Shown piece after piece: positions 5,838-61,319 of a DNA stretch of 64,000 nucleotides. Each line of letters starts with the position of its first letter. Within the stretch, counting starts at the first letter, position 1. Position numbers and translations under genes: made by a program. The notes below the pieces were generated by a model. The model searched no databases. It had not been told where the DNA came from and saw only the letters and a program-made list of their open reading frames with translations. The stretch is from a virus (taxonomy: Duplodnaviria > Caudoviricetes), in IMG/VR virus record IMGVR_UViG_2890910346_000001, one strand, 5' to 3'.

Positions 5838-6659
5838 TTATACCTCCTGTTCCAAAGCGTATAGCTCAATCGCTTTGGCAACGCCGTCTTGTTCATTTGT
5901 ATCTGTAATATGTGTAGCAATTGCTTTAACATTTTCTGTAGCATTTCCCATAGCAACACTCACTCCTGCATATGCAAGCATTTCTAAATCATTATTTGCA
6001 TCTCCAATTGCCATAATCTCTTCTCGTTTAATATTTAAACTATTGGCTAATTTCTCTAACGCCGTGGCTTTTGTTGCTCCTTTTGGCATTGTTTCAAAAA
6101 TATAAGATTGACTTCGTACAACACTAAAATGTTCTGATAACTCTTTTTCATATTTTTCTTGGAATATATCTAGTCTTTCGGGGGCAGCGAGAAACATGCC
6201 TTGGAACATCGTATATTCGCCACTAATTGCTTCATCAATAGATAAAAATTGAGGTTCTAAAAAGACAAGTGAGGCATCTTTTTTCACTTGTTCTTGAGGC
6301 TCTTCATCAACACAAAAATAATGTTCCTCATCAAATAGTGTAAATTGTACATCTTTATTTTCATGATTGATACGATTTAAATACAACATATCATTTTTTG
6401 TTAATTGGTGCCAACTCACCAATGACCAATCTGATGTATGATGTGTGGAACAACCATTGTTTAATATGGCATACTCATCTTGTTTCAATCCTATTTTTTC
6501 ATAAATCGGCTTTACTCCAGACAATGCTCGTCCTGTACAAATTACAATTTTTATACCTTTTTCAACGGCTTTATGAAGCATTTCAATTTGTGGTTTAGTC
6601 ACTTCTTTTGCTTCATTCAAAAGTGTGCCGTCCATATCTATTGCTATTAGTTTTATCAT
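5838..6659 (-). CDS. Cof-type HAD-IIB hydrolase; its 5' end is the integration target
   Basis: IAIDMDGTLL, CTGR, KATAL and IGDANND motifs. Confidence 0.93.
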   Translation of the reverse strand: MIKLIAIDMDGTLLNEAKEVTKPQIEMLHKAVEKGIKIVICTGRALSGVKPIYEKIGLKQDEYAILNNGCSTHHTSDWSLVSWHQLTKNDMLYLNRINHENKDVQFTLFDEEHYFCVDEEPQEQVKKDASLVFLEPQFLSIDEAISGEYTMFQGMFLAAPERLDIFQEKYEKELSEHFSVVRSQSYIFETMPKGATKATALEKLANSLNIKREEIMAIGDANNDLEMLAYAGVSVAMGNATENVKAIATHITDTNEQDGVAKAIELYALEQEV

Positions 6660-6674
6660 ACAATTTCTCCTTTT
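6637..6674. repeat. Left att junction (38-bp direct repeat)
   Basis: tctattgctattagttttatcatacaatttctcctttt is identical to 61077-61114; covers Cof RBS and first codons. Confidence 0.9.
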
Positions 6675-6735: not shown

Positions 6736-6795
6736 TTTTAACGATTTGATTTTTCCATATTATTATAACATTTTTTATTGGTTTTCTTCCAATAA
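6736..6795 (-). promoter_or_regulatory. Probable Cof promoter region, duplicated at 61261-61319
   Basis: About 59-bp near-identical block (1 substitution, 1 indel) containing TATAAT on the minus strand. Confidence 0.7.
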
Positions 6796-6852: not shown

Positions 6853-8418
6853 TCATCGATACAAAATTTTTCCATCAGTAAAGTGAATGGTGATTCTCTT
6901 GTCTGTTTCGATAACGATTTTCTCTATTAGTATATTAAACAGTGTTGGATTGAACTCCCTAATTAGGGTGTCCTGTTTTCCAATAATGTCAATACACGAT
7001 TTTAAGTTTTGAATACGAATATGATAGTTGACCAACTCTTCCTTTTTCTCTTCAAGTAACAATTCTAGTTTTTCATATGTTTTAACCAATTTATCGTATA
7101 TCTTTTGATAATTACTTTGGTCTTGTGCTAATTTTGAATTGGTGTAAACTAAATTTTCAACTTCGTCTTGTACAACAGTCAATTTATTGTTCAAAGTATT
7201 GATTTCATCTTTTAATGTCATATTACTCTCCAATTGATGAACTAAAATACCTAAATTATCAATAATCTCTTCTTTATTCGCAATTTGCTGATTTAAAGCA
7301 TCAACAATCCATTCTTGAATGTCTTCATCTGTTACATGTGGTGTTTGACATTTATTCTTATCTTTATACTTATGGCTACATCTATAAATGTGTCTTTTAT
7401 ACTTACTATTAGAATGCCATATATATCGACAATACTTATTTCCACAACAACCACACTCTATTTTTGAAAAATAATTCTTTTCTGTTGCCCACTTTGTGTT
7501 ATGTCTTAGTTGTACTTGCACCATATCAAAGATTTCTTTATCAATAATGGCTTCATGACTATTCTCAACATAATATTGTGGCAACTCTCCTTCATTTTTC
7601 TTCTGCTGCTTATTTAGAAAATCAACGCTATAGTATTTTTGAAGAAGTGCATCACCTTTATATTTTTCATTTTGTAAAATACTTTTCACGCTGCCATACG
7701 ACCATTTCTCTTTACCAGCTGGAGTCTTTATATTTTTTTCAGTTAATTCTCTTGCGATTTGATTGGGATTTTTCCCTTTTAAAAATAAACTGAAGATGTA
7801 TTCTACAATTCTAGCTTCATCCTTATCGACTTCAAACCCACCATCTTCACTTTGTTTAAAACCTAAAACCGTTGAATAAGAAAATGTCACTTTTCCTTCT
7901 GCTGCATTTTTACGTTTTGCCCACTTGACGTTTTCTGAAATACTTCTACTTTCTTCTTGGGCAATAGAAGACATAATGGTAATCAGTAGTTCGCCCTTTG
8001 AATCAAATGTCCATATATTTTCTTTTTCAAAATAAATTTCTACACCCTTGTCTTTCAATTGACGAACTGTCGATAACGAATCAACGGTATTTCTTGCAAA
8101 TCGTGAAACTGATTTCGTAATGATTAAATCAATTTTACCATCCATTGCGTCAGATACCATTTCTTGAAATCCTAATCGTTTTTTAGTAGTTGTTCCGCTA
8201 ATCCCTTCATCCGAATACATCTTCACAAATTCCCAATCTGACCGACTGTTGATATACGATTCATAATAATTCATTTGTGTTTCGTAAGACGATGCTTGGT
8301 CTTCTAAGTCCGTTGATACCCTCGCATAACCAGCAACTTTTCGTTTATGAACACTCGGTAATTTAGACTGATTGCTTAATCGTTTATCTGCTTCAATGGT
8401 AATAATTTTTTTAGTCAT
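6853..8418 (-). CDS. Large serine recombinase, full length with Zn ribbon and coiled coil
   Basis: YARVST, SRFARN catalytic motifs; recombinase domain; CGCCG...CSHK...C Zn ribbon. Confidence 0.95.
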   Translation of the reverse strand: MTKKIITIEADKRLSNQSKLPSVHKRKVAGYARVSTDLEDQASSYETQMNYYESYINSRSDWEFVKMYSDEGISGTTTKKRLGFQEMVSDAMDGKIDLIITKSVSRFARNTVDSLSTVRQLKDKGVEIYFEKENIWTFDSKGELLITIMSSIAQEESRSISENVKWAKRKNAAEGKVTFSYSTVLGFKQSEDGGFEVDKDEARIVEYIFSLFLKGKNPNQIARELTEKNIKTPAGKEKWSYGSVKSILQNEKYKGDALLQKYYSVDFLNKQQKKNEGELPQYYVENSHEAIIDKEIFDMVQVQLRHNTKWATEKNYFSKIECGCCGNKYCRYIWHSNSKYKRHIYRCSHKYKDKNKCQTPHVTDEDIQEWIVDALNQQIANKEEIIDNLGILVHQLESNMTLKDEINTLNNKLTVVQDEVENLVYTNSKLAQDQSNYQKIYDKLVKTYEKLELLLEEKKEELVNYHIRIQNLKSCIDIIGKQDTLIREFNPTLFNILIEKIVIETDKRITIHFTDGKILYR

Positions 8419-9313
8419 TCTTTTTTCCTTTCCTTAGATTGTTTTTCTGTTTTAATTCTTGTACCTTTTCAAAAATAGATTTGGCAACAATTGGTTCGTG
8501 TGCAGCTTCAACAATATATTTATTTAAAGCTCCTTCATTTGGTATAGATCGGCTTTTACCTCTCCGTCTATACGTCTTTTGTAAAATGAGAATACCTGTA
8601 TAAGCTTCTTGATTTAATATGTTATGGATGATGGATCGTGTGAATGAGTTTCCTTTTCGTGTTGTAAAACCATCTTCATTTAATCGATTGGCTATTTTTG
8701 ATGGCGTTATCCCTGAAATATAATCATCATATATTTTTCTAACTAACATTGCCTCGGATTCGTATATGTCATAGTGATCGTCTTTCCATCTATAACCTAG
8801 AATAGGTTGCGGATTATGGGGTATTCCTTGTTCAAATTTCTTTCTAACTTTCCATCTGATATTACTACTAATTTGATTTGACTCTTCTTCTGCTAAAGTT
8901 GCCAATAATGTAATCAGTAATTCGCCATCTGTCGTTAAGGTATCAATACTTTCTTTTTCAAATCGAACACTAATACCTAGTTGCTTTAATTCCCTTATAG
9001 TTTCTAATAGTTCGATAGTGTTTCGTCCAAACCTTGAAATAGATTTTGTGAGGATCATATCAACTTTTCCATGCCGACAATCATCGAGTAACTTTAAATA
9101 ATTTTTTCGATTTTTTATTTGTTTGCCACTAACCACATCATCAGAGTAAACACCTACATACTCCCAATCAGGATGATTTTGAATCAATTGATTGTAATAA
9201 GATACTTGATTGGAGAGTGAATTTAGTAAATGATGATGAGATACTCGTGTATACGCTGCAACTTTTAACTTTTCTCGTTTTGGTAGTGCAGATAATTGCT
9301 TAATAACTTTCAT
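8411..9313 (-). CDS. Second serine recombinase, lacking the Zn-ribbon/coiled-coil region
   Basis: AYTRVS, SRFGRN motifs plus recombinase domain; start at MKVIK after aggagg. Confidence 0.9.
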   Translation of the reverse strand: MKVIKQLSALPKREKLKVAAYTRVSHHHLLNSLSNQVSYYNQLIQNHPDWEYVGVYSDDVVSGKQIKNRKNYLKLLDDCRHGKVDMILTKSISRFGRNTIELLETIRELKQLGISVRFEKESIDTLTTDGELLITLLATLAEEESNQISSNIRWKVRKKFEQGIPHNPQPILGYRWKDDHYDIYESEAMLVRKIYDDYISGITPSKIANRLNEDGFTTRKGNSFTRSIIHNILNQEAYTGILILQKTYRRRGKSRSIPNEGALNKYIVEAAHEPIVAKSIFEKVQELKQKNNLRKGKKND

Positions 9314-9336
9314 TGTATCCTCCTTTTTGTTATGAC

Positions 9337-9369
9337 TATATATCACTCTGAAACGTTTATTTATCAAGT
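9337..9369 (-). promoter_or_regulatory. Repeated phage promoter motif, copy 1 of 4
   Basis: acTTGATAaataaacgtttcaGAGTGATATATAGT; matches 28535, 28986 and 29478. Confidence 0.75.
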
Positions 9370-10060: not shown

Positions 10061-11047
10061 CTATAATAGTTCATTTACTTTTTGTTGGACTTGATGATAA
10101 TCGTATCCAGCTTGCGTTAAACGATTCTTTCTCTCTTGTCCGTTGCCCCATTGACCGTTAATGACTTCTCTAGCTACTTCATCAATAGATTTTAGTTTTG
10201 GGGTTGGTTGTCCACTTAACAATTCATTCACTTTTGCTTGTACTTGATTATAGTCATACCCCGCATTAGTCAATGTCGTTTTGCGACTAGCACCATTCCC
10301 CCACTTACCGTTCAATACTTCTGTTGCCACTTCATCGATTGATTTCAATGTAGGCTTAGATGTTGATGGTTTGCCCAACAAGACATTCACTCGTTCTTGG
10401 ACTTGCAAAGGATCATATCCAGAAGCACGTAACTTTTGTTTGCGTTCCTCTCCATTTCCAAAACGTCCGTTAATGACTTGTCGTGCCACATCATCAAGAT
10501 TCGTATAGGTTTGTTGAACAGGTGTCGATAACTGCCCACTTAATCGCTTATTCACTTCAGTCGCAATATAGGGGAACTTGCTACCAAGATAAGGTCCTGG
10601 ACAGTTCGTATTCGCAAACCATTCATGCTTCGTCAAATTACCACTTGTATCACCTGTATAATTGAGTGACGGAATGCCGTTACGCTGACAAATATCCACA
10701 CATAATTGAATAGTTTTTTCTAAAGCCACATCACTCACATGCCAGTTACCACCATACTCATCATTGGCCACTTCAATCGTAATCGCTCGGTTGTCATTGG
10801 CTGCACTTGACGAGCACCACGAACGATTATGTTCCTCAACATACATACCGACTCTACCACTGGAATCGACCCCATAATTCGAACTTGCTTGTCTTGACAC
10901 TGGCGCAAATACATTCCCACACGTTTCAACCGATAGATTACCTGCCATGTGATGAATGGTAATCGTATCAATGGTATGATTGCGTTGCCCACTATGATTT
11001 GGGCTTAATTTGACATAATTGACTAATGGACTATTACTCATGTTCAT
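10061..11047 (-). CDS. Endolysin: Amidase_2 domain plus three Cpl-7 (CW_7) repeats
   Basis: ITIHHMAG, AITIEVAN, HEWFANTNCPG; three xDxVAxxVINGxWGNG...GYD repeats. Confidence 0.92.
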   Translation of the reverse strand: MNMSNSPLVNYVKLSPNHSGQRNHTIDTITIHHMAGNLSVETCGNVFAPVSRQASSNYGVDSSGRVGMYVEEHNRSWCSSSAANDNRAITIEVANDEYGGNWHVSDVALEKTIQLCVDICQRNGIPSLNYTGDTSGNLTKHEWFANTNCPGPYLGSKFPYIATEVNKRLSGQLSTPVQQTYTNLDDVARQVINGRFGNGEERKQKLRASGYDPLQVQERVNVLLGKPSTSKPTLKSIDEVATEVLNGKWGNGASRKTTLTNAGYDYNQVQAKVNELLSGQPTPKLKSIDEVAREVINGQWGNGQERKNRLTQAGYDYHQVQQKVNELL

Positions 11048-26676: not shown

Positions 26677-28266
26677 TTACATAAACAAAATTCCGCGCCC
26701 ATCATACACACTTTCCGTATTGACATTCCCACAACGAATAGCTCTATCTAATGCCATAATAGTCGCAATGGCACCGTCAATCTTTTCTGTTGATTTTTCT
26801 TTATCTGCTTTGATATTTCCTGCTGGGTCTGTTCGAATAAAAATGTTATCCATATTCCATCTTAAAACAGGATGCCCCCCATGTGCGATTTTCTTCTCTA
26901 GGGTTAATTTCATAAGTTCCTTAGTTGGTGGGCTCATATCTTTAAATCCTTGACCAAATGGCACCACTGTAAAGCCCATGCCTTCTAAATTTTGAACCAT
27001 TTGAACGGCTCCCCAACGGTCAAAGGCAATTTCTTTAATGTTAAATATTTGACCTAATCGTTCAATAAATTTTTCAATATGACCGTAATGCACAACATTT
27101 CCTTCTGTCGTTTCAACATGCCCTTGCTTCTCCCATAAATCATACGGCACATGGTCACGTCTAACTCTTAATGGAATGGTATCTTCTGGCAACCAAAAGT
27201 ATGGTAGTATCACATATTTATCGTCTTCATCTTCTGGTGGAAAGACTAATACAAACGCAGTCAAGTCAGTTGTAGAAGATAAGTCTAAGCCTCCATAACA
27301 CACACGACCTTCTAGGTCTTCTTCATTCACACTAAACGCACACGCATCCCATTTCTCCATTGGCATCCAACGAATGGCTTGTTTAACCCATTGATTGAGT
27401 CGCAGTTGCCTAAAGGCATTTTCTTCTCCTGGATTTTGTTTAGCCGATTCACATGCCATTTCCACCTTTTCAATCGGTACGGTCACACCAAGTGACGGAT
27501 TGGCTTTATGCCACACCTTTGGATCGGTCCAATCATCATTTTCATCCGCACCGTATATGACGGGATAAAAAGTAGGGTCGACTTTCCGTCCGTCTAAGAT
27601 GTCCTTTGCTTTTTGGTGCGTTTCAAAACAAATCGAATGGGTATCTGTACCAGCCGTTGTGATTAAAAAATAAAGGGGCTGTGTGCGTGCATCTCCACTC
27701 CCTTTGGTCATAACGTCAAAGAGCTTTCTGTTGGGCTGTGTATGCAATTCATCAAACACCACACCGTGAATATTAAAACCATGCTTGGAGTAAGCCTCAG
27801 CTGATAAGACTTGATAAAAACTGTTGGTTGGTAAATACACAAGCCGTTTTTGAGAAGCTAGAATCTTAACTCGCTTATTTAATGCAGGACACATTCTTAC
27901 CATATCTGCTGCTACTTCAAAGACAATACTCGCTTGTTGTCGGTCTGCTGCACAACCATAGACTTCAGCACGTTCTTCAAAATCTCCGCAACAAAGCAAT
28001 AATGCAACAGCAGCCGCTAACTCACTCTTACCCATCTTTTTAGGGATTTCAATGTATGCCGTATTAAACTGTCGATACCCATCTGGCTTGACTATCCCAA
28101 ATAAATCTCTGATGATTTGTTCTTGCCATTGAAGAAGTTTGAATGGCTTCCCTGCCCATGTGCCTTTAGTATGCGATAGGCATTCAATAAAATTGACGGC
28201 ATAGTCAGCGAACTCTTTATTATAGGTTGATGTCTTTAATTTAAACGGACTTGGTTTATAGGTCAT
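26677..28266 (-). CDS. Terminase large subunit
   Basis: EIPKKMGKS Walker A, FDELH Walker B, GGLDLSSTTD nuclease motif, KIDGAIA. Confidence 0.95.
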   Translation of the reverse strand: MTYKPSPFKLKTSTYNKEFADYAVNFIECLSHTKGTWAGKPFKLLQWQEQIIRDLFGIVKPDGYRQFNTAYIEIPKKMGKSELAAAVALLLCCGDFEERAEVYGCAADRQQASIVFEVAADMVRMCPALNKRVKILASQKRLVYLPTNSFYQVLSAEAYSKHGFNIHGVVFDELHTQPNRKLFDVMTKGSGDARTQPLYFLITTAGTDTHSICFETHQKAKDILDGRKVDPTFYPVIYGADENDDWTDPKVWHKANPSLGVTVPIEKVEMACESAKQNPGEENAFRQLRLNQWVKQAIRWMPMEKWDACAFSVNEEDLEGRVCYGGLDLSSTTDLTAFVLVFPPEDEDDKYVILPYFWLPEDTIPLRVRRDHVPYDLWEKQGHVETTEGNVVHYGHIEKFIERLGQIFNIKEIAFDRWGAVQMVQNLEGMGFTVVPFGQGFKDMSPPTKELMKLTLEKKIAHGGHPVLRWNMDNIFIRTDPAGNIKADKEKSTEKIDGAIATIMALDRAIRCGNVNTESVYDGRGILFM

Positions 28267-28282
28267 GTTCTGTCCTCCCAAC

Positions 28283-28304
28283 AAAAAAAGGAGCCAATGC
28301 TCCT
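28283..28304 (-). terminator. Terminator immediately upstream of terL
   Basis: aggagc-attg-gctcct hairpin followed by a T-run on the minus strand. Confidence 0.75.
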
Positions 28305-49679: not shown

Positions 49680-52600
49680 TTATGCTTCTTCATCTTTTTT
49701 TCGACGAGCTACTACCAAACCTAAACTAATTAGAAGTGAAAGTGTTGCGGTATTCCAACTAGTCATTGAGTTAGATTCACCTGTAGTTGGTAATTTTTTA
49801 TCAGAAATTGATTTTGCTGTATTATTTTGACTATCAGCGTCACCGACATTATTTTTATCAACTTTGGTTTCACTGTTAGCTTGATTATCACTTACTGGAT
49901 AGCTATTCGCATCAAGTGGATTTGTACCTTTCTTAACTTCAGTACCATCATCGACACCATCACCATCAGTATCTTTATTAAATGAGTCTGTTCCAAGTTG
50001 TAATTCTTCAAGATTAGTTAACCCATCATTATCATCGTCCGCATTGAGTTTCAAGATTGGTTTATCATTAAAATCAGCCAATCCAAGCTCATGTCTACCT
50101 TGAACTACCAAATCAGTAATTGGGATTTCAAAATTATCAGCAAATATTTTACCATTTTCACCAACAGTAATTGTCGCATTAGGATTAAAACGAGTTAATT
50201 CTTTAACAAGTCTTTCTTGCTCAGCCGTTGTTAACTGATTAATGTTTGCTACTGGAAGTTTTTCAATTGGCAACACCACAAGACTTGTAGAACCTAAAAT
50301 TTCCTTAACTTCTGTTTCAGTTGTTGCTGCTTCCACTTTTTCTTTCGCTGCTGTTACAGCATCATCAACTTGTTTGTTGGCTGCGGCTTTTTCTGCCTCT
50401 GATAAAGTGTTATTATTCGCAATTTCTTCTTTCTTAGCTTTCGCTGCTTCATCGATTGCTGCTTTCGCTTCGTCTTTACCAACTGGTTTCACTGATTCAA
50501 TTGCATCTTTACCACCGTTTACTGCAGCTGTTACTTCTTCTGGAGTTGTTGCTGCTTCCACTTTTTCTTTTGCTGCTGTTACAGCATCGTCAACTTGTTT
50601 GTTGGCTGCGGCTTTTTCTGCCTCTGATAAAGTGTTATTATTCGTAATTTCTTCTTTCTTAGCTTTCGCTGCTTCATCGATTGCTGCTTTCGCTTCATCT
50701 TTACCAACTGGTTTCACTGATTCAATTGCGTCTTTACCTTCATTTGCTGCAGCTGTTACTTCTTCTGGAGTTGTTGCTTCGTCCACTTTTTCTTTCGCAG
50801 CTTCTGCAGCATCATCAACTTGTTTGTTTGCTGTGGCTTTTTCTGCCTCTGATAAAGTGTTATTATTCGCAATTTCTTCTTTCTTAGCTTTCGCTGCTTC
50901 ATCAATTGCTGCTTTCGATGCGTCTTTACCAACTGGTTTCACTGATTCAATTGCGTCTTTACCTTCATTTGCTGCAGCTGTTACTTCTTCTGGAGTTGTT
51001 GCTGCTTCCACTTTTGCTTTCGCTGCTACTACAGCATCATCAACTTGTTTGTTTGCTGTGGCTTTTTCTGCCTCTGATAAAGTGTTATTATTCGCAATTT
51101 CTTCTTTCTTAGCTTTCGCTGCTTCATCGATTGCTACTTTCGATGCATCTTTTGCGACTGGGTTGATCGCCTCGATTTCAGCTTTACCATTGTTCGCTGC
51201 TGTATTGACAGCTTCATCTGTCTCTGCAGCATTAATCGCTTCTTTGGCTTTATTGGCTGCTGTATCAACATCTTCTACTGCAGATAATTTTTCATCTGCT
51301 GAAAGATCATCTTTCGCCTTGATTTCAGCTTTTTTCGCTTTTGCAGCTTCATCAATCGCTTTTCTAGCTTGATCTTTCACTGTTGCTGTGACTGGCACGT
51401 CTTTAATCGCTGTCACACCCTCAGCTTTTGCTGTATCCACGACTGCATTCGTAGTAGCTGTATCAATGCTTTCTTTTGCTGCTGTTACAGCTTCATCGAC
51501 TTTCGCTTTCGCTGCTTCTTTTTCTTCAGTTGTCAAAGCAGTGTTAGCATCAATTGCTGCTTTCTTCACGTCTGCAACGGCATCAAGGGTATCTTTAGCA
51601 GCTTGTTTTTTCGCTGCTGTTGGTTGAACGTCGTTTACTGCAGTTTCACCATCTGTTTTCGCTGTATCAACACCGTCTTTGTCAGTTGCGGCATCAATTG
51701 CTACTTTGGCTTTTGTTGCTGCAGCTTCAACGGCTGCTTTCGCCACTACTTTTTCTTCATCTGTCAAGGCTGTATCTGCATCGATTTCTTTGTCTTTTGC
51801 TTCTTTCGCCTTGTCAATTGCGGCTTTAGCATCTGCTTTTGCAGTCGTGTCAGGTGTCACTGAGTCAATCGCATTGATTCCTGCTGCTTTTGCATCAATT
51901 ACAGCTTGATTAGTTGCTGCGGCATCAATTGCATCTTTCGCTTTTGTGACTTCTGCATCCACTTTGGCTTTTTCTGCTTCTTTTTCTTCAGTTGTCAAGA
52001 TAGGGTTTGCTTCAATGCGAGCTTTCTTCACATCTGCGGCTGCGTCAATCGCGGCTTTAGCATCGTCTTTTGAAACAGCACTTGGTGATACTTCGTCAAT
52101 TGCCTTGATAGCTTTAGTTTTTTCATCTGCAACTGCTTTATCCGTTGTCGCTGCCTCAATCGCTGCTTTCGCGTCGCCTGCTGCTTTTGCTACTTCTTTC
52201 TTCGCTTCCGCTTTTTCTTCATCTGTCAAGGCTGTATTTGCATCGATTTCTTTGTCTTTTGCTTCTTTTGCCTTGTCAATCGCGGCTTTAGCATCTCGCT
52301 TCGTTGAAGCTGTTCCAGTAACAGCTTCAATTGCTTTTTCACCGGCTGCTTTCGCTTGGTCTACAGCCGCTTTGTCAGTTGCTTTGTCAATCTCTGCTTT
52401 GGCTGCATTTGCAGCTGCATCTACTTCGGCTTGAGCAGCTTGTTTTTCTTCAGCTGTTAAGTTGTTATCGCCTTCGATTGCATTTTTCTTCTCAACTGCT
52501 TTTGCATCAATCGCATCTTTTTCTTTGTCTTTTGCGATTGGAGCAATACCATCGATAGCTGTTTTACCATCATCTTTCGCTGTATCTACAGCAGCTTGAT

Positions 52601-55600
52601 CTGTAGCTGCATCGATTGCTTTGTTCGCTTCTTCTGCTTTTTCTGCAATTTCGGCTTTAGCAGCTGCTTTTTCTGCTTCGCTTAAATCATTATTTTGATC
52701 AATAGATTCAGCGGCTTCTTTCGCTTTTTCTGCAATAGCTGCTTTCGCGTCGTCTTTAGCAGTTGCGGTTGGTTGAAGTTTTTCAATCTTATCTTCTGCT
52801 TCAGCACGAACGTTGGCTACATCTTCGTTTGTAGCAGCTTCGTCCACTTTCGCTTTGGCTTCGTCTGCAGCTTTTTGTGCTTCTTCTTTTGCTTTCGCTT
52901 TTTCTTCCTCTGTCAAAGCTTTATTCGCATCGATTTCTTTGTCTTTTGCTTCTTTTGCCTTGTCAATTACGTCTTTAGCGGCTTGTTTTTTCGCTGCTGC
53001 TGGTTGAACACCAGTTACTGCAGTTTCACCCTCTGTTTTCGCTGTATCAACACCATCATTGTCCATCGCGTCGTCGATTGCTTTTTTCGCATCAGCTACG
53101 GCTTTTTCAACGTCTGCTTTCGCTTTCGCTTTTTCTTCCTCTGTCAAGGCTTTATCCGCATCGATTTCTTTGTCTTTTGCTTCTTTTGCCTTGTCAATGG
53201 CATCTTTAGCCTTGTCTTTGCCAATTGGAGCAATGTCATCGATAGCTGTTTTACCAGATTCTACTGCTTGGTCTGCTTCTTCTGGTGTTGTTGCTGCGTT
53301 TGCTTTTTCTTTTGCTTCTTTTGCAGCGTCATCTACTTGTTTTTTCGCTGCTTCTTTTTCTGCGTCTGATAAAGCATCGTTATTCGCAATTTCGTCTTTC
53401 TTCGCGTCTGCTGCTTTGTTGATTTCAGTTTCCGCTTTCGCTAGCGCTGCTTCTACGGCATCAGCAGTTGCATGAGAAACTTCAACATCTTTGATTTTTT
53501 GTTTTCCATCAGTAACGGCTTCAGTAACTTGATCAGCTGCATCTGCATCCTCAATCGCTTGTAAAGCTTCCTTCTTAGCATCGTTCACTGCTTTGATAGC
53601 TGCTTCTTTTTCTTCTTGCGTTGCTTTGTCGTCCGCATTGATAACAGCAATCTTATCAGCAGCTGCTTTCTCAATTTCAGCTTTCTGCTTATCTTTTGCG
53701 ACTGTATCAGCATTGATTGCTTTCACACCATTGGCTGTTTCAGTGTCAACGGTCGTATTTGTCTCTGCTTCGTCGATCGCTTCTTTTGCTGCTTTTGCTG
53801 CTTCATCAACTTTTTGAATGGCAGCCAATTTTTCTTCTGTGCTAAGATCTGGGTTCGCTACAAGTTCCGCTTTCTTCGTTTCTGCTGCTTTATCAATCGC
53901 TTTTTTTGCCGCTTCTTTAGCTTTTGGTGCTACATCCACGCCGTTGATTGCTACGATACCATCATCTTTTTTAGCAATGACATTTGCATTTGTAGTCGCT
54001 GCATCGATTGCTTGCTTCGCTTTTGTCGCTTCTTCTTGAACTTTTTGTTTAGCAGCTACTTTTTCCTCATCTGTCGCTTGAGTATTTTTGTCAATAGCTG
54101 CTTCCTTCGCTTTTGCAACTTCTTCCACTTTCGCTTTGGCAGCTTCTTTTTGAACTGGTTTCGGCGCAAAATTATTGTAATACGGCAGATTTTCATTCAA
54201 TGCATCGCCAACAGCATCATTCGTTGTAGCAGCGTCAATTGCATTTTTTGCTTCTTGAGCTTTGTTAGCAAGTTCCGCTTTAGCTGCGGCTTTTTCCTCA
54301 TCCGTTAAGTCTGAACGCATGTCAACTTCTTGCTCTTTTTGTAATTTGGCATTATCAATACTATTTTTAGCAGTTGCCTTAATTTCTGAAGTTTGAGGGA
54401 CATCATTCAACGCATTTAGACCATTAGTTTTCGCATTTGTAACAGCATCATTTGTCGTTGCATCTGCGATAGCTTGTTTTGCTTCGTCTGCTGCTTGTTG
54501 AACTTTCTCTTTGGCTGCTTGTTTTTCTTCATCGGTCAAATCTTTATTGCCGTCGATTTCTTGATCTTTAGCAGCTTTTGCCTCATCGATAGCTTTCGTC
54601 GCTTCTGGTTTTGTCACAGCATTTGGGCTTACTTTTTCAATTTCACCCGTACCGTTTGTTTTCGCTTTATCAACAGCTGCATCTGTTGTCGCTGCATCAA
54701 TTGCTTCTTTAGCTTCTTTTGCTAATTTCTTAGCTTCTTCTTTTGCAGCTGTTTTCTCATCTTCAGTCAAACCAGTTGCATCATTGATAAGATTTTCTTT
54801 TTCTTTAAGCTTTTCATCAATTGCTGCTTTTGCGTCTTTTTTCTTCGCTGGAGTGACTTCTACGTCATTGACTGCTTTTACCCCTGCTGCTTGAGCTGCT
54901 GTTACTGCATCTTGAGTTATCGCATCGTTAACCTTTTGCTTCTCGTCCTTAGCCGCTTGTGAAACAGCTTCTTTCGCTTTCGCTTTTTCTTCAGCTGTTA
55001 GATCAGCATTGTCATTAATAGCTTTTTCTTTTTCTGCTGCAGCGTCATCAATAGCTTTGAGAGCATTTTCTTTACCAACTATTTGAATGTCATTTACTGC
55101 GGCTTCACCGTCTGTTTTAGCTTTATCAACCTCAGCATTGTTAGTTGCAGCATCAATTGCGTCTTTAGCTTTGTTTGCTTCAGCCTCTACTTCGGCTTTT
55201 TTAGCGTCTTTTTCAGCTTGTGATAAGTTTTGATTTTGGTCAATGGCATCTTTAGCTTCCGTTGCCTTAGCCTCAATCGCTTGTTTAGCGTCTTTTTTCT
55301 TATCAGCAGTTGGTGCTACGCCTGCTAAAGCTGCTTCTCCATCTGTTTTCGCTGTGTCTACGCCAGTTTTGTTAGTTGCGTTATCAATAGCTTGTTTGGC
55401 TTCGTCTGCTTTTTGTTTAGTCTGCTCTTTAGCTGCTTGTTTTTCTTCAGCCGTCAAGTCCTTGTTGTCATCGATTTCTTTATCTTTCGCTTTTTTAGCG
55501 GCATCAATCGCTGCTTTGGCTTGGTCTTTTCCGACTTTATCGACTGCCTTCACAACATTTTCACCTGCAGTTTTCGCCGCTTCTACACCTGCGTCATTAG

Positions 55601-58600
55601 TCGCTTGGTCAACTTTTTCTTTTTCTGCTGTAGCTGCCGCTTCTACATCTGCAAGCACTGCCTCTTTTTCTTCCGGCGACAAGTTCGTTCTAAGCGCCAA
55701 CTCAAGCTTACGATCTGCAGCTACCTTGTCAATAGCTGCTTTGGCTTCTGCTTTTTTGGCTGCTGTTTCTGGCACATCTCGTACGGCTTTTTCTCCAGCT
55801 GTTTGAGCAGTTGCTACATCTTGATTAGACGTTGCCGCATCAATCACTTTATTAGCTTTATCAGCTTCTGCTGCAACTTTTTCTTTGGCAGCTTGTTTTT
55901 CTTCGGCCGTCAAGTGATTGTTGTTGTCGATGGCTTGCTCTTTTATGCGTTTTGCTTCTTCAACTTTAGCTTTAGCTGCGTCTTTCTTGACTGGAACTGG
56001 AGTTATAGCATTAATAGTATTTACCCCAGTGTCTTTTGCAGTATTAATTTCATTTTGATTACGCCCGCGATTAATTGCTGTTTTTGCTGCTGTTACAGCA
56101 GCGTCAACTTTCGCTTTCTCAGCATTCTTTTCCTCAGTTGTCAAAGCTGGGTTAGCATCAATCGCTGCTTTTTTAATTGCTGCCGCATCATCAATCGCTT
56201 TTCTTGCCTTATCTCTGCCTACACTACCTATATCTTCAATACGAGCTTCCGCATCAGAACCTGCATCCGTTGCAGCATCTTGATTTTGAGTTGCATCAAT
56301 CGCTTTGTTTCCTTCTTCAACCACTTTATTTACATTATTGATGGCTCTAACTTTTTCTTCAGGTGATAGGATGTCACTTGCCGTAATTTCTTTGATTTTT
56401 TTATCCGCTTCTGCTTTTAGGTGCTGTTTCGCAGTTTCTTTAGCAGCTTCTAGTGGATCTTTTTGAGCAGCTGGTGCTACTGCTGCCTCTACCGCTTCAA
56501 TCGCTGTTTTCCCTGCATCTTTCGCTGCGTTCACAGCATCTGGTGTAGTGGCTGCTGTAATTGCTGCTTTGGCTTTTTCTACTGCTGCATCTACTTTTTT
56601 GATTGCAGCCTCTTTGTCTGCTTGTGTTGCATTTGGAGTGGCGTTGATTGCTGTTTTTCGAGTTGCTGCTGCTACATCAATTTCTTGATTAGCCTTATCT
56701 TTGGCTAACAGTGGCACAGCTTCAATCGCATCGAGTCCTTTTTGTTTTTCAGTACCGACAGCGGTAAAGTCTACTGAATCTGAAGTTAAGGCTGCATTTT
56801 TATCGACTTCTGCTTTTTTATCCAAGGCTTTAATTGCATCGTTAGCTGCTTTTTCTACTGCTTGCTTAGCCGTAGTTTTTTCGGTTTGCGTCATGTCCTG
56901 ATTAGCATCAATCGCTTGGTTTTTCTTTACTTTAGCAGCTTCAATCTCTGCTTTAGCGGCTGTGATTTGATCATTTGCTTTGACTTTGTCTGGTGTTGAC
57001 GAATTCCCCGCTTCATCTTTTACGATTGCCGTTACTGTTTGGTTATTCGTGCTTGGAACTAATAATTTCCCATTTGCAGTCGCATAACCTGTTGGTACAC
57101 CTTGACCATTCGCTAGACTCCAATTACCTTGATTATCTTTCACAAATTCTACCGGTGTGCCGTCAGCAACTGTGACCACCAAGCGTTTGGCATCCTCTGG
57201 TGTGCTAATAACAACACTTCCGTCTGGTTGTGGTCTTAGTGATGGTTCAGCTGGGGGAACGGTGTCTACCACGTTAACTTTTAGATTAATCGTTTGACTC
57301 GTACCATTTGGGTAGGTAACTGTTACGACTCCAGATTGCTCGCCTAAACTATTTGTACTAGGTTTTGTCGCCCACACAAAAGTTGTTCCTGTTGGTAATT
57401 CATTTGGATTAGAAACGATTAAATCACGAAGTTTATCACTTTCTGTCGGCAATTCTGAAAATTGTTGAACCTCACGCGTTGACTCTACTTGTGGCACTTG
57501 ATTTACAACTAATTTGAGATGACCTGTAGATGGACGTCCATCATCTCCTGTACCATCGTCATTTGCACTTGCACGGTAACGAACAGCAGTATTCGCACCG
57601 TATCCTAGTGACCAAAAGCGTCCTGCCAAATTACTATTATCCGGCCACATATTAGGTTGTTGGATAATTTTGATTTCTTCTCCATTTGCTACTGCTGCTC
57701 TAATAGCTGCAATATCTGCACTTGTCAAAATATCACGATTAACCCACGTTCCTTTTGAATCATTAAAGTCATCGCGTCCTGCACCAACATTATCTCCAGA
57801 AGCAAATTCAGCATTAAACATTGAAGCTGTTCCTTCTTCTTTAAGAGACCAATTCCCACTTCCATCCACAATAGCATATTTCGGTTTATCTACTCCTGGA
57901 ATGATAATTCGAATCGTTTGATTAGCCATCCCTGTACCAGAAAGCGTCTTATCTGTAGCTGCATTAAATGGATTAACAGAAGTTGGAGCGGCAATCCGCG
58001 GAGCTGTCGTGATATCATATTTTGGTCCTGTAACGACGATATCCCCGTCTGCTTGTTTCATCGTTACACGAGCATAAAACTTACCAGAAAGCGGCAAAGG
58101 TTTTTTAAATTCTAGTTTTGGTCCCCAACCATAAGAAATATTACCCGGACCTGCATCTGCATTAATTCCATTTGTTCCTGGTGTGTTTGCAACATTGTCA
58201 GGAAATTGGGGAGCTGGCTTTCCATCCATCGTTTTCCCGTTTTGCCCTTCAGCGACAACTTCTTCTTTTCCATCAGGAGTTTGGACTATGTATTCAATCT
58301 TAGCATTTCTAGCTATATGGGCTATTTGTACGCCCCCAGGATTCAAACCTCCATTTCGAGTAAAGTCTGCGTTTTTAATTGTTTTTTTATCATACCCATT
58401 CAAATACTTTAGTACTTCTGGATGTGCATCGTTAGCACCAATTACAGGTTTAGGGTAATCTACTTTGTATCTAAATTCATGCTGAGTGCCCCCAGATGAA
58501 TAGGTAGCCGTTACATAACCTGCTAGAATCGGTTTAGCTGGGTCTGTATTAGAATAACTCCAATTCGCAACTCCGTTTTGATTCGCAGTAACTTCTGGTC

Positions 58601-59420
58601 CCTCTATCAATGTTCTACCATCAATAGCTGAAATCAAATTAAACTTAACTTTTGTATTCGCCGGTATACCAGTAGCTTGGAAACTACCCACATAAGCACC
58701 TGCTTGATTACGAACAGTATCAATCTGAGCTTCTGTTCTACCAGTTATAATACTTGTACCTGCAACAACAAATTGATTATTCGTTGACTTTCTCAAATCG
58801 CCTTCATTTCCTACCGCTGTAAAACCAGCTGGAACGGCATTTGAATCCGCACGGAAACCTGTTCCTTCTGGCATTTCTCCTCTTGAACGATTATAACGTT
58901 GATAAGCACGGCTACTTGTCAATGCCTTCGTTAGTTCTAAAGATAGTCCTGCAACGTCTTCATCACTAAGATTTAATTGACGGAAGTGTTCCTCTGTCAA
59001 CAATTTAACTTCTGCAACTGATAGTTTTTTGAAGACTTCTAAAGTCAACTTATCCACTGAAATAGTTTCTTCAACTTTCTCACCTAGTTGTTCAGACGAA
59101 CGGTTAACTTCCTCAGTTATTGGATTTACTTCAGTGACGGCTGATTCTTCTTGATTCGTTACTTTTTCAGATCCATCTTCTTTCAATTCAGCTGTCGATA
59201 GACTAGCTTCTTCAACCACAGTTGTATTCTCAGAAACAGTTACTTTTTCTACTGATGACAACTCAAAATCCACTACGCTTGACTTAGGTACAGACTCAAT
59301 AACTTCACTTGCTTCTGCAAAAACTTGTGGTCCAACTATCAAGAAAGAGCCTAAGAAAACTGACCCTACCCCTACTTTAAATTTTCGTATTGAAAAACGA
59401 TCTTTCTTTTTATTAAACAT
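49680..59420 (-). CDS. Giant YSIRK-signal LPXTG surface protein (3246 aa) with DUF1542-like helical repeats
   Basis: FSIRKFKVGVGS signal; Ig-like and Rib-like domains; many ~75-aa Ala/Lys repeats; DxDxDG Ca-binding repeat; LPTTG, TM helix and RRKK. Confidence 0.93.
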   Translation of the reverse strand: MFNKKKDRFSIRKFKVGVGSVFLGSFLIVGPQVFAEASEVIESVPKSSVVDFELSSVEKVTVSENTTVVEEASLSTAELKEDGSEKVTNQEESAVTEVNPITEEVNRSSEQLGEKVEETISVDKLTLEVFKKLSVAEVKLLTEEHFRQLNLSDEDVAGLSLELTKALTSSRAYQRYNRSRGEMPEGTGFRADSNAVPAGFTAVGNEGDLRKSTNNQFVVAGTSIITGRTEAQIDTVRNQAGAYVGSFQATGIPANTKVKFNLISAIDGRTLIEGPEVTANQNGVANWSYSNTDPAKPILAGYVTATYSSGGTQHEFRYKVDYPKPVIGANDAHPEVLKYLNGYDKKTIKNADFTRNGGLNPGGVQIAHIARNAKIEYIVQTPDGKEEVVAEGQNGKTMDGKPAPQFPDNVANTPGTNGINADAGPGNISYGWGPKLEFKKPLPLSGKFYARVTMKQADGDIVVTGPKYDITTAPRIAAPTSVNPFNAATDKTLSGTGMANQTIRIIIPGVDKPKYAIVDGSGNWSLKEEGTASMFNAEFASGDNVGAGRDDFNDSKGTWVNRDILTSADIAAIRAAVANGEEIKIIQQPNMWPDNSNLAGRFWSLGYGANTAVRYRASANDDGTGDDGRPSTGHLKLVVNQVPQVESTREVQQFSELPTESDKLRDLIVSNPNELPTGTTFVWATKPSTNSLGEQSGVVTVTYPNGTSQTINLKVNVVDTVPPAEPSLRPQPDGSVVISTPEDAKRLVVTVADGTPVEFVKDNQGNWSLANGQGVPTGYATANGKLLVPSTNNQTVTAIVKDEAGNSSTPDKVKANDQITAAKAEIEAAKVKKNQAIDANQDMTQTEKTTAKQAVEKAANDAIKALDKKAEVDKNAALTSDSVDFTAVGTEKQKGLDAIEAVPLLAKDKANQEIDVAAATRKTAINATPNATQADKEAAIKKVDAAVEKAKAAITAATTPDAVNAAKDAGKTAIEAVEAAVAPAAQKDPLEAAKETAKQHLKAEADKKIKEITASDILSPEEKVRAINNVNKVVEEGNKAIDATQNQDAATDAGSDAEARIEDIGSVGRDKARKAIDDAAAIKKAAIDANPALTTEEKNAEKAKVDAAVTAAKTAINRGRNQNEINTAKDTGVNTINAITPVPVKKDAAKAKVEEAKRIKEQAIDNNNHLTAEEKQAAKEKVAAEADKANKVIDAATSNQDVATAQTAGEKAVRDVPETAAKKAEAKAAIDKVAADRKLELALRTNLSPEEKEAVLADVEAAATAEKEKVDQATNDAGVEAAKTAGENVVKAVDKVGKDQAKAAIDAAKKAKDKEIDDNKDLTAEEKQAAKEQTKQKADEAKQAIDNATNKTGVDTAKTDGEAALAGVAPTADKKKDAKQAIEAKATEAKDAIDQNQNLSQAEKDAKKAEVEAEANKAKDAIDAATNNAEVDKAKTDGEAAVNDIQIVGKENALKAIDDAAAEKEKAINDNADLTAEEKAKAKEAVSQAAKDEKQKVNDAITQDAVTAAQAAGVKAVNDVEVTPAKKKDAKAAIDEKLKEKENLINDATGLTEDEKTAAKEEAKKLAKEAKEAIDAATTDAAVDKAKTNGTGEIEKVSPNAVTKPEATKAIDEAKAAKDQEIDGNKDLTDEEKQAAKEKVQQAADEAKQAIADATTNDAVTNAKTNGLNALNDVPQTSEIKATAKNSIDNAKLQKEQEVDMRSDLTDEEKAAAKAELANKAQEAKNAIDAATTNDAVGDALNENLPYYNNFAPKPVQKEAAKAKVEEVAKAKEAAIDKNTQATDEEKVAAKQKVQEEATKAKQAIDAATTNANVIAKKDDGIVAINGVDVAPKAKEAAKKAIDKAAETKKAELVANPDLSTEEKLAAIQKVDEAAKAAKEAIDEAETNTTVDTETANGVKAINADTVAKDKQKAEIEKAAADKIAVINADDKATQEEKEAAIKAVNDAKKEALQAIEDADAADQVTEAVTDGKQKIKDVEVSHATADAVEAALAKAETEINKAADAKKDEIANNDALSDAEKEAAKKQVDDAAKEAKEKANAATTPEEADQAVESGKTAIDDIAPIGKDKAKDAIDKAKEAKDKEIDADKALTEEEKAKAKADVEKAVADAKKAIDDAMDNDGVDTAKTEGETAVTGVQPAAAKKQAAKDVIDKAKEAKDKEIDANKALTEEEKAKAKEEAQKAADEAKAKVDEAATNEDVANVRAEAEDKIEKLQPTATAKDDAKAAIAEKAKEAAESIDQNNDLSEAEKAAAKAEIAEKAEEANKAIDAATDQAAVDTAKDDGKTAIDGIAPIAKDKEKDAIDAKAVEKKNAIEGDNNLTAEEKQAAQAEVDAAANAAKAEIDKATDKAAVDQAKAAGEKAIEAVTGTASTKRDAKAAIDKAKEAKDKEIDANTALTDEEKAEAKKEVAKAAGDAKAAIEAATTDKAVADEKTKAIKAIDEVSPSAVSKDDAKAAIDAAADVKKARIEANPILTTEEKEAEKAKVDAEVTKAKDAIDAAATNQAVIDAKAAGINAIDSVTPDTTAKADAKAAIDKAKEAKDKEIDADTALTDEEKVVAKAAVEAAATKAKVAIDAATDKDGVDTAKTDGETAVNDVQPTAAKKQAAKDTLDAVADVKKAAIDANTALTTEEKEAAKAKVDEAVTAAKESIDTATTNAVVDTAKAEGVTAIKDVPVTATVKDQARKAIDEAAKAKKAEIKAKDDLSADEKLSAVEDVDTAANKAKEAINAAETDEAVNTAANNGKAEIEAINPVAKDASKVAIDEAAKAKKEEIANNNTLSEAEKATANKQVDDAVVAAKAKVEAATTPEEVTAAANEGKDAIESVKPVGKDASKAAIDEAAKAKKEEIANNNTLSEAEKATANKQVDDAAEAAKEKVDEATTPEEVTAAANEGKDAIESVKPVGKDEAKAAIDEAAKAKKEEITNNNTLSEAEKAAANKQVDDAVTAAKEKVEAATTPEEVTAAVNGGKDAIESVKPVGKDEAKAAIDEAAKAKKEEIANNNTLSEAEKAAANKQVDDAVTAAKEKVEAATTETEVKEILGSTSLVVLPIEKLPVANINQLTTAEQERLVKELTRFNPNATITVGENGKIFADNFEIPITDLVVQGRHELGLADFNDKPILKLNADDDNDGLTNLEELQLGTDSFNKDTDGDGVDDGTEVKKGTNPLDANSYPVSDNQANSETKVDKNNVGDADSQNNTAKSISDKKLPTTGESNSMTSWNTATLSLLISLGLVVARRKKDEEA

Positions 59421-59464
59421 CGATTTTCCTCCTTATATTTTTTGATTTCATTTGATTTTAAATC

Positions 59465-59490
59465 ATTCAAAAAATCAGGGATTTTTGAAT
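59465..59490. repeat. 26-bp recombination-like site A (central AG)
   Basis: attcaaaaaatcAGggatttttgaat; 10/12 self-symmetric pairs; inverted relative to site B. Confidence 0.75.
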
Positions 59491-59613
59491 CGCTATTCCT
59501 ATTGAAATTTAAGACACTAACTAATTTATTCAATGTTCAAAATATGGACTAAAAACGCCTTTTTTCTTGCCTTTTTTAAAATCAAAATATATCACAGTAA
59601 TGATAGCACATTT

Positions 59614-59639
59614 ATTCAAAAATCCCTAGTATTTAGAAC
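59614..59639. repeat. 26-bp recombination-like site B, inverted, overlapping the recombinase stop codon
   Basis: Reverse complement gttctaaatactAGggatttttgaat; 21/26 identical to site A, inner 14 bp perfect. Confidence 0.75.
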
Positions 59640-60242
59640 TATTTTTTGATTTTTTCTGGCTATTAACCAGTTATAACACGTTGTTTTGGCAACATCTAGA
59701 ACATCGGCTGCTTCTTGGATATTTAATTGCTGTAATTCCCATTGTTGATAGACTTCTTCAAAGTTAGGTGGTATTTCTTTTTTTGGTCGCCCAAATCGAA
59801 CACCTTTTTTCTTTGCTTCTCTAATCCCCTCTCTTTGTCGTTGTAACATATTCTCTCGTTCTACCTGTGCCACATAAGAAAGAACTTGTAAAACTAAATC
59901 CGAAATAAATCTTCCCGTAATATTATTGTCAAAAGATGATTTTGTGTTCAATAAATCAAGATCTAATACTTTAATATCAACTTCTTGTTCTCTTACTAGA
60001 TACCGCCATTGTTCAAGAATTTCATCATAATTTCTACCTAAGCGATCAATTGATTTAATTACAACTTCATCACCTTTTTTGAGACGCTTTATCATACGCT
60101 TGTAAGCTATACGATTAAAATCTTTTCCAGACATCTTATCAATATAAAGCTGTTTATCTGCAATTCCCTCTTGATACATTGCAGTTAGTTGACGCTCAAC
60201 ATTTTGTTCCTTAGTTGACACACGAATATAGCCATATTTCAT
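59616..60242 (-). CDS. Small serine recombinase (resolvase/invertase family)
   Basis: YGYIRVST..Q, SIDRLGRN, GVRFGRP and C-terminal HTH. Confidence 0.93.
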   Translation of the reverse strand: MKYGYIRVSTKEQNVERQLTAMYQEGIADKQLYIDKMSGKDFNRIAYKRMIKRLKKGDEVVIKSIDRLGRNYDEILEQWRYLVREQEVDIKVLDLDLLNTKSSFDNNITGRFISDLVLQVLSYVAQVERENMLQRQREGIREAKKKGVRFGRPKKEIPPNFEEVYQQWELQQLNIQEAADVLDVAKTTCYNWLIARKNQKIVLNTRDF

Positions 60243-61051
60243 TTTTTATCCTCCTTTACTATTATCTCAATAATGCTTTAAATAAACCCTATAAACAACT
60301 TCAACTTGAAAAGATAAACAGCGCATTGTTTACTTCATATCATAAAAAATATACCTTCCTATCTCAAAATAATTAATAAATCAAAAAAAGTCCGAACAAA
60401 AGTCCAGACTCTCTTATTAGAATTCATAAAAACAGTAATATTCAATAACATAAATAAGGTAAATAAGTAATTAACCTTGTAACTAAATAGATAACTTTTT
60501 AAAACCACTATTTATTTAAATCTAAACCAAACCATTAATTCAAACGTAAAATAACAAATATATATACACTTCATGCTTTTTATAATTTTAAATTCTATCT
60601 CACCTCCAACAATCTTCGAGTATTATTCTAAAATAAAAAGTATTTGTAAATCCGTTACTTATATAAAAATCCTGTTGATACCCCCTAGAAAAATTCCACA
60701 CCCCTATTATTTTTTTGACATCCCTAAAAATTATACAGCCAAAATTAAGAGCACAATAAAAAAACTTCAATTCATTTTAAAACGCGGACTAGCAACAAAG
60801 GCTATATTTCAAGCTATTTTCTATTTAGTTTTGTATCAAAATCGGTATCTTCTTCTCAACACCCATACTCAATATCAACTAATAACAATTTAACGATTAC
60901 TTACTTTTTAACGATAATAAATTATTTAACGATTTCAATATTATAGATAAAATTTTAAAAGTTCAAAAAATCATCTCTTCATATGATTCTTAACCTTTCA
61001 AACTTAAAAACTACCTAAAGCCCTTATATCGGCACCATTTATTTCGTTATG

Positions 61052-61114
61052 TTGTATCCATGAATTGGTAGTTATTTCTATTGCTATTAGTTTTATCATA
61101 CAATTTCTCCTTTT
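61052..61114. repeat. Right att junction; 52-bp imperfect palindrome centred on TC at 61077-61078
   Basis: ttgtat...atacaa outer arms, 14/25 symmetric pairs; the centre coincides with the start of the 38-bp identity with 6637-6674. Confidence 0.85.
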
Positions 61115-61319
61115 AATTATTTAGGGGGATGCAACACATTGCTTAATAAGGCAAATAAAGTTGCTCTTATTAAGATGCTTGTCGCTATTTGGCGAACAAG
61201 CTATATGTCTTACTATGTTTTTAAGCCAACCTTTCGTCTTGCACTTAAAAACTGTCGCTTTTTTAACAATTTGATTTTCCATATTATTATAACATTTTTT
61301 ATTGGTTTTCTTCCAATAA
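61077..61319 (-). pseudogene. Orphaned promoter, leader and first codons (MIKLIAI) of the Cof gene
   Basis: Same RBS, start codons and promoter block as 6637-6795; frame diverges after the att core. Confidence 0.75.

Follow-up and report, generated by a model that had tools for sequence, protein, structure and literature searches.

Two inverted sites beside a serine recombinase gene point to an invertible promoter switch for a giant surface adhesin in an Aerococcaceae genome

What function could be served by two closely similar, inverted 26-base-pair (bp) sites lying in the short gap between a serine recombinase gene and the gene of a 3246-residue adhesin? The question is raised by a stretch of 64,000 nucleotides (nt), available as the virus record IMGVR_UViG_2890910346_000001 (Caudoviricetes) and called here the window, whose sequence is found in an Aerococcaceae genome of 1,910,740 bp. 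A preliminary description of the window had proposed that the sites belong to a Hin/Gin-family invertase, and that they enclose a promoter whose inversion turns a prophage-borne adhesin on and off. On comparative sequence evidence, the locus is probably a promoter inversion switch (inverton) run by the adjacent serine recombinase and caught in the ON state. The features on which this reading relies are the following.

49680-59420, minus strand: adhesin gene, coding for a cell-wall-anchored surface protein of 3246 amino acids (aa) with a YSIRK signal, 28 DUF1542 repeats, TSP3 repeats and an LPTTG sorting signal
59434-59428, minus strand: Shine-Dalgarno sequence of the adhesin gene, AAGGAGG
59465-59490: site A, the adhesin-proximal 26-bp recombination site, an imperfect palindrome with core AG at 59477-59478 (half-site matrix score 23.8)
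59479-59625: predicted invertible segment, 147 bp core to core, as supported by its conserved length and by alignment with flipped paralogues
59549-59571: central element, a third half-site-like stretch and candidate recombinase-binding sequence, which aligns with the centres of the segments at 417 kb and 463 kb of the genome and of Streptococcus sp. ZJ93
59586-59608, minus strand: two tandem extended -10 promoter-like elements directed toward the adhesin, TGcTATCAT (59608-59600) and TGaTATATT (59594-59586)
59614-59639: site B, the recombinase-proximal 26-bp site, with plus-strand core CT at 59626-59627 (half-site matrix score 21.5)
59616-60242, minus strand: small serine recombinase gene, 208 aa, with a catalytic domain (Pfam Resolvase) and a C-terminal helix-turn-helix
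60367-60339, minus strand: promoter-like site of the recombinase gene, TTGAGA, 17 nt, TATGAT (consensus match only)
60415-60384, minus strand: terminator-like hairpin ahead of that promoter-like site (consensus match only)

Read directly, site A and the reverse complement of site B are identical at 21 of 26 positions, among them the whole inner 14 bp, and both have AG at the centre; a repeat search recovered the pair as inverted arms of 31 nt (59460-59490 and 59614-59644; 81% complementary, with 123 nt in between). The positions, the identity, the asymmetric core and the segment length, earlier given as about 147 bp, are all as first described. Site B covers the last codons and the stop codon of the recombinase gene and, because the inner halves of the two sites are identical, the terminal R-D-F-stop would be unchanged by inversion, in agreement with the earlier proposal. 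On the other side, 57 bp lie between the core of site A and the start codon of the adhesin gene (ATG, 59420), and 44 nt, ribosome-binding site included, separate the end of the site from that codon. The 14-mer AGGGATTTTTGAAT has two exact copies in the whole genome, both at sites A and B and inverted, and inverted repeats that are perfect over at least 14 bp and spaced by 50-300 bp number 20 genome-wide, of which 11 are copies of one repeat element; since the 14-mer is confined to the pair and such repeats are scarce, the pair is not a chance feature. An exact search of metagenome contigs with the 26 bp of site A returned no match.

The most direct evidence for inversion comes from homologous loci of the Streptococcus mitis group. 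In four of 50 assemblies (L021, L022, L053, L069) the segment is inverted with respect to the other 46. At the junctions of the flipped copies the inner half-sites have changed places and the outer ones have not moved, the exchange falling exactly at the AG core. Between two of the assemblies, L022 and L024, identity over 5.6 kb is 97.8%, and the inversion is their sole structural difference. As read from these assemblies, inversion by the switch family is shown for the homologous loci in S. mitis, and the AG core is where crossover takes place. The flipped allele that the preliminary description had proposed to seek in related genomes therefore exists in the S. mitis group (4/50), and is absent from the three assemblies of the window's own species (0/3).

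A second line of evidence is found within the genome itself. It was scanned with a half-site matrix that was seeded on the window sites and refined on the homologous loci, and for which the maximum score in the shuffled genome was 13.8. Twelve sites exceeded the best shuffled score; ten of these, together with two weaker partners below that threshold (546155 and 730421), form seven inverted pairs, listed with their coordinates on contig G000:C1 and their centre-to-centre distances.

953224 / 953373: 149 bp, the pair of the window
417428 / 417577: 149 bp, an orphan pair with no recombinase gene
449049 / 449200: 151 bp, adjoining a paralogous recombinase gene
463547 / 463695: 148 bp, an orphan pair with no recombinase gene
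1536263 / 1536387: 124 bp, adjoining a recombinase remnant
546028 / 546155: 127 bp, a weaker pair
730262 / 730421: 159 bp, a weaker pair

The genome has about seven such switches, the window locus included, a fact that the preliminary description had missed. Six of the seven pairs lie upstream of genes with a YSIRK signal, while the 1536 kb pair precedes the gene of a secreted 355-aa protein. The orphan pairs (417428-417602 and 463547-463720), both in the OFF orientation, keep only the last recombinase codons and stand about 40-50 nt upstream of YSIRK surface-protein genes (417640 and 463769). If active, they would have to be served in trans, because no recombinase gene lies beside them, and the recombinases at 449 kb and/or 953 kb probably also act in this way. 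When the palindromic half-sites are stripped before alignment (with the half-sites included, the orientation is ambiguous for some pairs), the interior of the window segment aligns with the interiors at 417 kb and 463 kb only as its reverse complement (z 7.0 and 5.8, vs 0.8 and 0.7). By this alignment, the window segment is shown to be flipped relative to its 417 kb and 463 kb paralogues. The scan also returned two unpaired intragenic sites (1110302 and 1007302), regarded as chance matches or left unexplained.

At the 1536 kb locus (1536263-1536412) the sites are S. mitis-like, the target gene (1535160-1536227) is on the minus strand with the promoter element facing away from it, and the neighbouring recombinase is reduced to a remnant of its 3' end.

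The direction of transcription can be predicted from an element that the loci have in common. The two minus-strand promoter-like elements earlier reported to face the adhesin, TGcTATCAT and TGaTATATT, are indeed present, and the first of them is separated by 5 nt from site B's inner half-site. Seven further independent loci conserve a -10 element, in many cases with an extended TG, at 4-7 nt from one inner half-site. In the window it lies beside the recombinase-proximal site and reads into the adhesin gene; the 730 kb locus and the four flipped assemblies of S. mitis likewise have it directed into the target gene. It lies beside the gene-proximal site and reads away from the gene at the 449, 417, 463, 546 and 1536 kb loci of the genome; it has the same position and direction in zg-ZUI334, zg-ZJ1578, ZJ93, zg-86 and the S. 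mitis majority. The window locus is assigned to the ON state because this conserved element reads into the adhesin gene. Furthermore, the gene-proximal site and the ATG are no more than about 35-50 nt apart, ribosome-binding site included, at three loci (window, 417 kb and 463 kb), so that no other position is left for a promoter. The conserved extended -10 element suggests that a promoter carried on the segment drives the adhesin gene, with a transcription start predicted near 59593 or 59579 on the minus strand.

The same layout recurs in relatives, a spread to Streptococcus, Gemella and Clostridia that had also been missed. The closest recombinases, 83-86% identical, are the 449 kb paralogue and those of Aerococcaceae zg-ZUI334 (and its relatives), zg-ZJ1578, Streptococcus sp. 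ZJ93 and zg-86. All five of these two-site loci have a 26-bp site with an AG core at or near the recombinase end, a segment of 145-150 bp, a site with the opposite core and then a surface-protein gene. The recombinase-end site covers the stop codon in four of the five and is placed about 90 bp downstream in zg-86; likewise, the surface-protein gene carries a YSIRK signal in four, and that of zg-86, a giant one, comes after two small genes. Across six related loci the core-to-core length stays within 145-150 bp. At a greater distance, about 50 loci of the S. mitis / S. pseudopneumoniae group encode a recombinase about 57% identical and have two sites 123 bp apart core to core, and Gemella sanguinis and many Lachnospiraceae and Erysipelotrichaceae loci have site pairs about 114-125 bp centre to centre. 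In a matrix scan of the more distant loci, 51 of 76 had a pair on the downstream side of the recombinase gene, with a spacing of 124-135 bp, and further Clostridia loci, below the matrix score thresholds, have pairs about 114-116 bp apart.

A mechanism can be proposed from this arrangement. The 208-aa recombinase would bind as dimers to the 26-bp imperfect palindromes A and B; the two sites would be paired and both cut at the central AG/CT, the half-sites rotated by 180 degrees and religated, which would flip the 147 bp between them. With an asymmetric core and inverted sites, the product would be an inversion and not a deletion. In the ON state the end with the extended -10 elements would lie next to site B and fire through site A into the adhesin gene. 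In the OFF state transcription from the flipped promoter would enter the recombinase gene at its 3' end, leaving the adhesin gene with 44 nt and a ribosome-binding site but no promoter. Trans action across about seven homologous switches would then produce combinatorial surface variation. As for the central element, in Streptococcus sp. ZJ93 (L012) it and the first site make up a perfect 15-bp inverted repeat, and one may speculate that the window copy (59549-59571) could be an accessory or bending site.

The enzyme itself has the features of the small serine recombinase superfamily: residues 3-148 match Pfam PF00239 Resolvase (1.2e-28), and Ser9, Arg7, Asp65, Arg66 and Arg69 align with the catalytic residues of gamma-delta resolvase in an alignment that extends to residue 191 and takes in the helix-turn-helix of that protein. 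The serine, the Arg/Asp/Arg cluster, the C-terminal helix-turn-helix and a length within about 180-210 aa are all present. Its assignment to the Hin/Gin family is supported in one respect and not in another. The layout of the sites, as read from the sequence, is of Hin/Gin type, with two inverted 26-bp sites, 12-bp half-sites and an asymmetric 2-bp core. By contrast, in a PDB search the enzyme scores higher against Sin/bin3 (2r0q; 1.1e-26, 96.9 bits) and gamma-delta resolvase (4.2e-23, 85.3 bits) than against Gin (7.9e-20, 74.6 bits); by these search scores, which are not a tree, it does not cluster with Hin/Gin over the resolvases. It falls outside the Mpi family, scoring 53.1 bits with the NCBIfam model NF009949 against a cut-off of 272.

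The proposed ON/OFF switch of the adhesin, captured in the ON state, is thus supported by the architecture, by the S. mitis flips and by the flipped orientation relative to the paralogues, with no flipped copy of the window locus in three assemblies. The arrangement corresponds to that of an inverton, namely inverted repeats around a short intergenic segment with a predicted promoter, beside the gene to be regulated. Several points weigh against this conclusion. The window, L097 and L098, which are the assemblies of the species, are all ON (3/3), and no flipped copy of the locus is found among them. The comparison with the paralogues reveals an inversion during evolution and says nothing on the present rate. 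A difference of 1 nt in an A-run near site B (59640-59655 vs L097:3590-3610) alters the tail of the recombinase, which ends in ...IVLNTRDF in the window strain and in ...NCSKY in the two other assemblies of the species; elsewhere in the clade the tail reads ...NCSKY or ...CTKY and the stop codon falls on the core. The predicted promoter of the segment has no good -35 hexamer, and a consensus promoter scan listed nothing inside the segment, a blank that results from the scan's demand for a -35 hexamer. Finally, a loop of 147 bp is short for synapsis, and no accessory factor has been identified.

Part of this evidence would also be expected if the switch were a fossil or locked one, in which the architecture of an active inverton was inherited, no meaningful flipping takes place in the species and the adhesin is constitutive. 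The uniform ON orientation of the species and the altered recombinase tail of the window strain are consistent with such a history, as is the fact that each locus of the 83-86% clade is found in a single orientation across its 2-3 assemblies. However, all three strains retain the two 26-bp sites undamaged, along with the perfect 14-bp inner repeat, and the recombinase open reading frame is uninterrupted and retains its catalytic residues. Moreover, assemblies report the majority orientation only, so that uniformity among three of them is weak evidence. The contig of one of the three, L098 (GCA_018362825.1, contig JAGYXZ010000008.1), stops exactly at the inner edge of site A, as mixed orientations can cause; its compatibility with reads of both orientations is only a hint. 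A locked state is, on balance, unlikely, and present-day switching at the window locus would be expected.

Another explanation regards the outer and central sites as the crossover and accessory subsites of a res-type site, at which a Sin- or Tn3-like resolvase would resolve multimers or cointegrates without any inversion. It draws on the higher scores of the recombinase against Sin and gamma-delta resolvase, on the existence of a third, central site-like element and on the position of the 449 kb paralogue near the mobilisation genes NikA/MobC. It is contradicted by the opposite AG/CT cores of the outer sites, by the S. mitis homologues, which occur in both orientations with an exchange exactly between the outer sites, and by the interior of the window segment, which is flipped relative to the paralogues. 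In addition, site pairs without a recombinase gene persist directly upstream of surface-protein genes, and no transposase or plasmid backbone accompanies the window module. This explanation is regarded as very improbable. A fortuitous inverted repeat, or a transcription-factor operator or terminator with no recombination, might be suspected in AT-rich DNA, where short inverted repeats are common in such intergenic regions, and is effectively refuted, with hardly any probability left to it, by a 14-mer restricted to sites A and B in 1.9 Mb, by the rarity of such repeats (about ten distinct ones genome-wide), by site scores well above the shuffled-genome maximum and by the recurrence of the layout beside homologous recombinases in many genera.

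The promoter inversion switch that is favoured here can be set beside systems already characterised. Serine recombinases that invert promoters have been studied in depth in Salmonella, phages Mu and P1, and Bacteroides. Hin/hix of Salmonella and Gin/Cin/Pin of Mu, P1 and e14 have in common with the window a small serine recombinase with a C-terminal helix-turn-helix and two inverted 26-bp imperfect palindromes with an asymmetric 2-bp core. The half-sites of hix and gix are rich in A-tracts, as are those of the window, and in the Hin system, too, a promoter on the invertible segment toggles a surface structure. Unlike the segments of Hin (about 1 kb) and Gin (about 3 kb), that of the window measures 147 bp; its recombinase gene lies outside the segment, with the stop codon inside a crossover site, its enzyme is no closer to Gin than to Sin or gamma-delta resolvase, and a central site-like element is conserved. 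To our knowledge Fis is confined to Proteobacteria, and we know of no Fis or enhancer in Firmicutes, nor would one be expected there.

Mpi of Bacteroides fragilis is similar in that a serine recombinase acts on short promoter segments (about 150-230 bp) at several surface loci, some of them distant from its gene, and distant targets are implied in the window genome by the orphan pairs at 417 kb and 463 kb. It differs in phylum, in the failure of the window enzyme to match the Mpi model, in targets that are genes of cell-wall-anchored or secreted proteins rather than polysaccharide operons, and in the presence of at least two cognate recombinases encoded in cis. The Sin and beta resolvases of Gram-positive plasmids and Tn552 include the best-scoring solved relatives, and they too have several recombinase sites within about 150 bp, one possibly accessory; those enzymes resolve directly repeated res sites, whereas the outer sites of the window are inverted and inversion products occur in its homologues. 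Among Firmicutes, the characterised promoter or leader switches known to us rely on the tyrosine recombinase RecV. In Clostridioides difficile, the cwpV and flagellar switches are comparable as inversions in a Firmicute, the former upstream of a large cell-wall protein gene, but differ from the window switch in that RecV is a tyrosine recombinase encoded elsewhere. In the case of cwpV, a large cell-wall protein is phase-varied by inversion of an upstream segment of about 150-200 bp, and the switch acts via a terminator in the leader RNA, the promoter not being moved (PMC2784873).

The literature searched offered no account of the recombinase clade of the window, nor of serine-invertase switches for wall-anchored adhesins in Lactobacillales. 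Genome-wide catalogues of invertons exist and may list some of these loci (PMC11602134). The window switch belongs with the known invertons, and its Firmicute recombinase clade is apparently undescribed. More tentatively, and with confidence that falls short of even, the loci might together constitute an Mpi-like network in Lactobacillales: a new clade of serine invertases with sites on the stop codon and invertons served in cis and in trans (about seven in this genome, two of them ON), in which segments of about 14 helical turns with a central Sin-like accessory element replace Fis and the enhancer, and which would extend to the S. mitis group.

The locus deserves attention for several reasons: it belongs to a set of switches at multiple loci, some of them orphans, the central element is conserved, and human commensal streptococci show natural flips. 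With about seven switches at its disposal, a clonal population would be able to vary which very large surface proteins are combined on its cells, with a bearing on colonisation, immune evasion and the masking of phage receptors. The short, length-conserved segment with its central site-like element may show how a serine invertase can achieve directionality without Fis. Since both orientations of the S. mitis / S. pseudopneumoniae switches occur in public assemblies, the family can be tested in tractable human commensals.

Whether the adhesin is carried by a prophage, as first described, is a separate matter, on which the evidence is divided. An intact prophage occupies about 6.8-45 kb of the window, with large serine integrases (6853-9367), a lysin (10061-11047), a terminase (26677-28284) and replication genes up to about 44.7 kb. 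In blastn against phage records, its early region has Streptococcus Javan-type relatives, and the right prophage end is not settled by the matches. In favour of carriage, direct repeats of 38 bp (6637-6674 / 61077-61114) and 45 bp (6751-6795 / 61275-61319) bracket the prophage together with the adhesin block; to these repeats the gene at 5838-6659 contributes its initial 22 nt and the region upstream of it. Searches for contigs that encode the GT2 protein or the 324-aa open reading frame, aimed at the junction of prophage and adhesin block in other strains, returned no exact match. A second, decayed sister prophage after the right-hand copy of the repeats counts against firm carriage. So does another strain of the species, in which the recombinase-adhesin module lies beside ABC-transporter genes absent from the window genome and synteny stops at 60543, as well as the paralogous modules at 449, 417 and 463 kb, among whose immediate neighbours there are no phage genes; that at 449 kb is near mobilisation genes and a group II intron. 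A scan of viral contigs with the recombinase found only relatives at most 62% identical, which gives no sign of the clade on phages and no proof either way.

Some further loci encode related recombinases. A third paralogue in the same genome (G000:C1:252113-252697; L109:8114-8734), of 206 aa and 66% identical, is located between azlCD-like genes and an RpiR regulator; no site pair is recognisable beside it, and it could act in trans on S. mitis-type sites. In Gemella sp. zg-1178 (L105), where the recombinase is 82% identical, one recognisable site lies at the stop codon and precedes a DNA methyltransferase gene (N6_N4_Mtase), with no adhesin gene there; the contig ends soon after, before any partner site. 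Extibacter muris DSM 28560 (Lachnospiraceae) has five copies of the recombinase, 57-59% identical (L013, L016, L019, L036, L074). Four of the five have a downstream site pair at 94-125 bp, whose recombinase-proximal site scores low on the matrix built from Lactobacillales, and the recombinase family seems to form multi-copy sets of invertons in gut Clostridia too.

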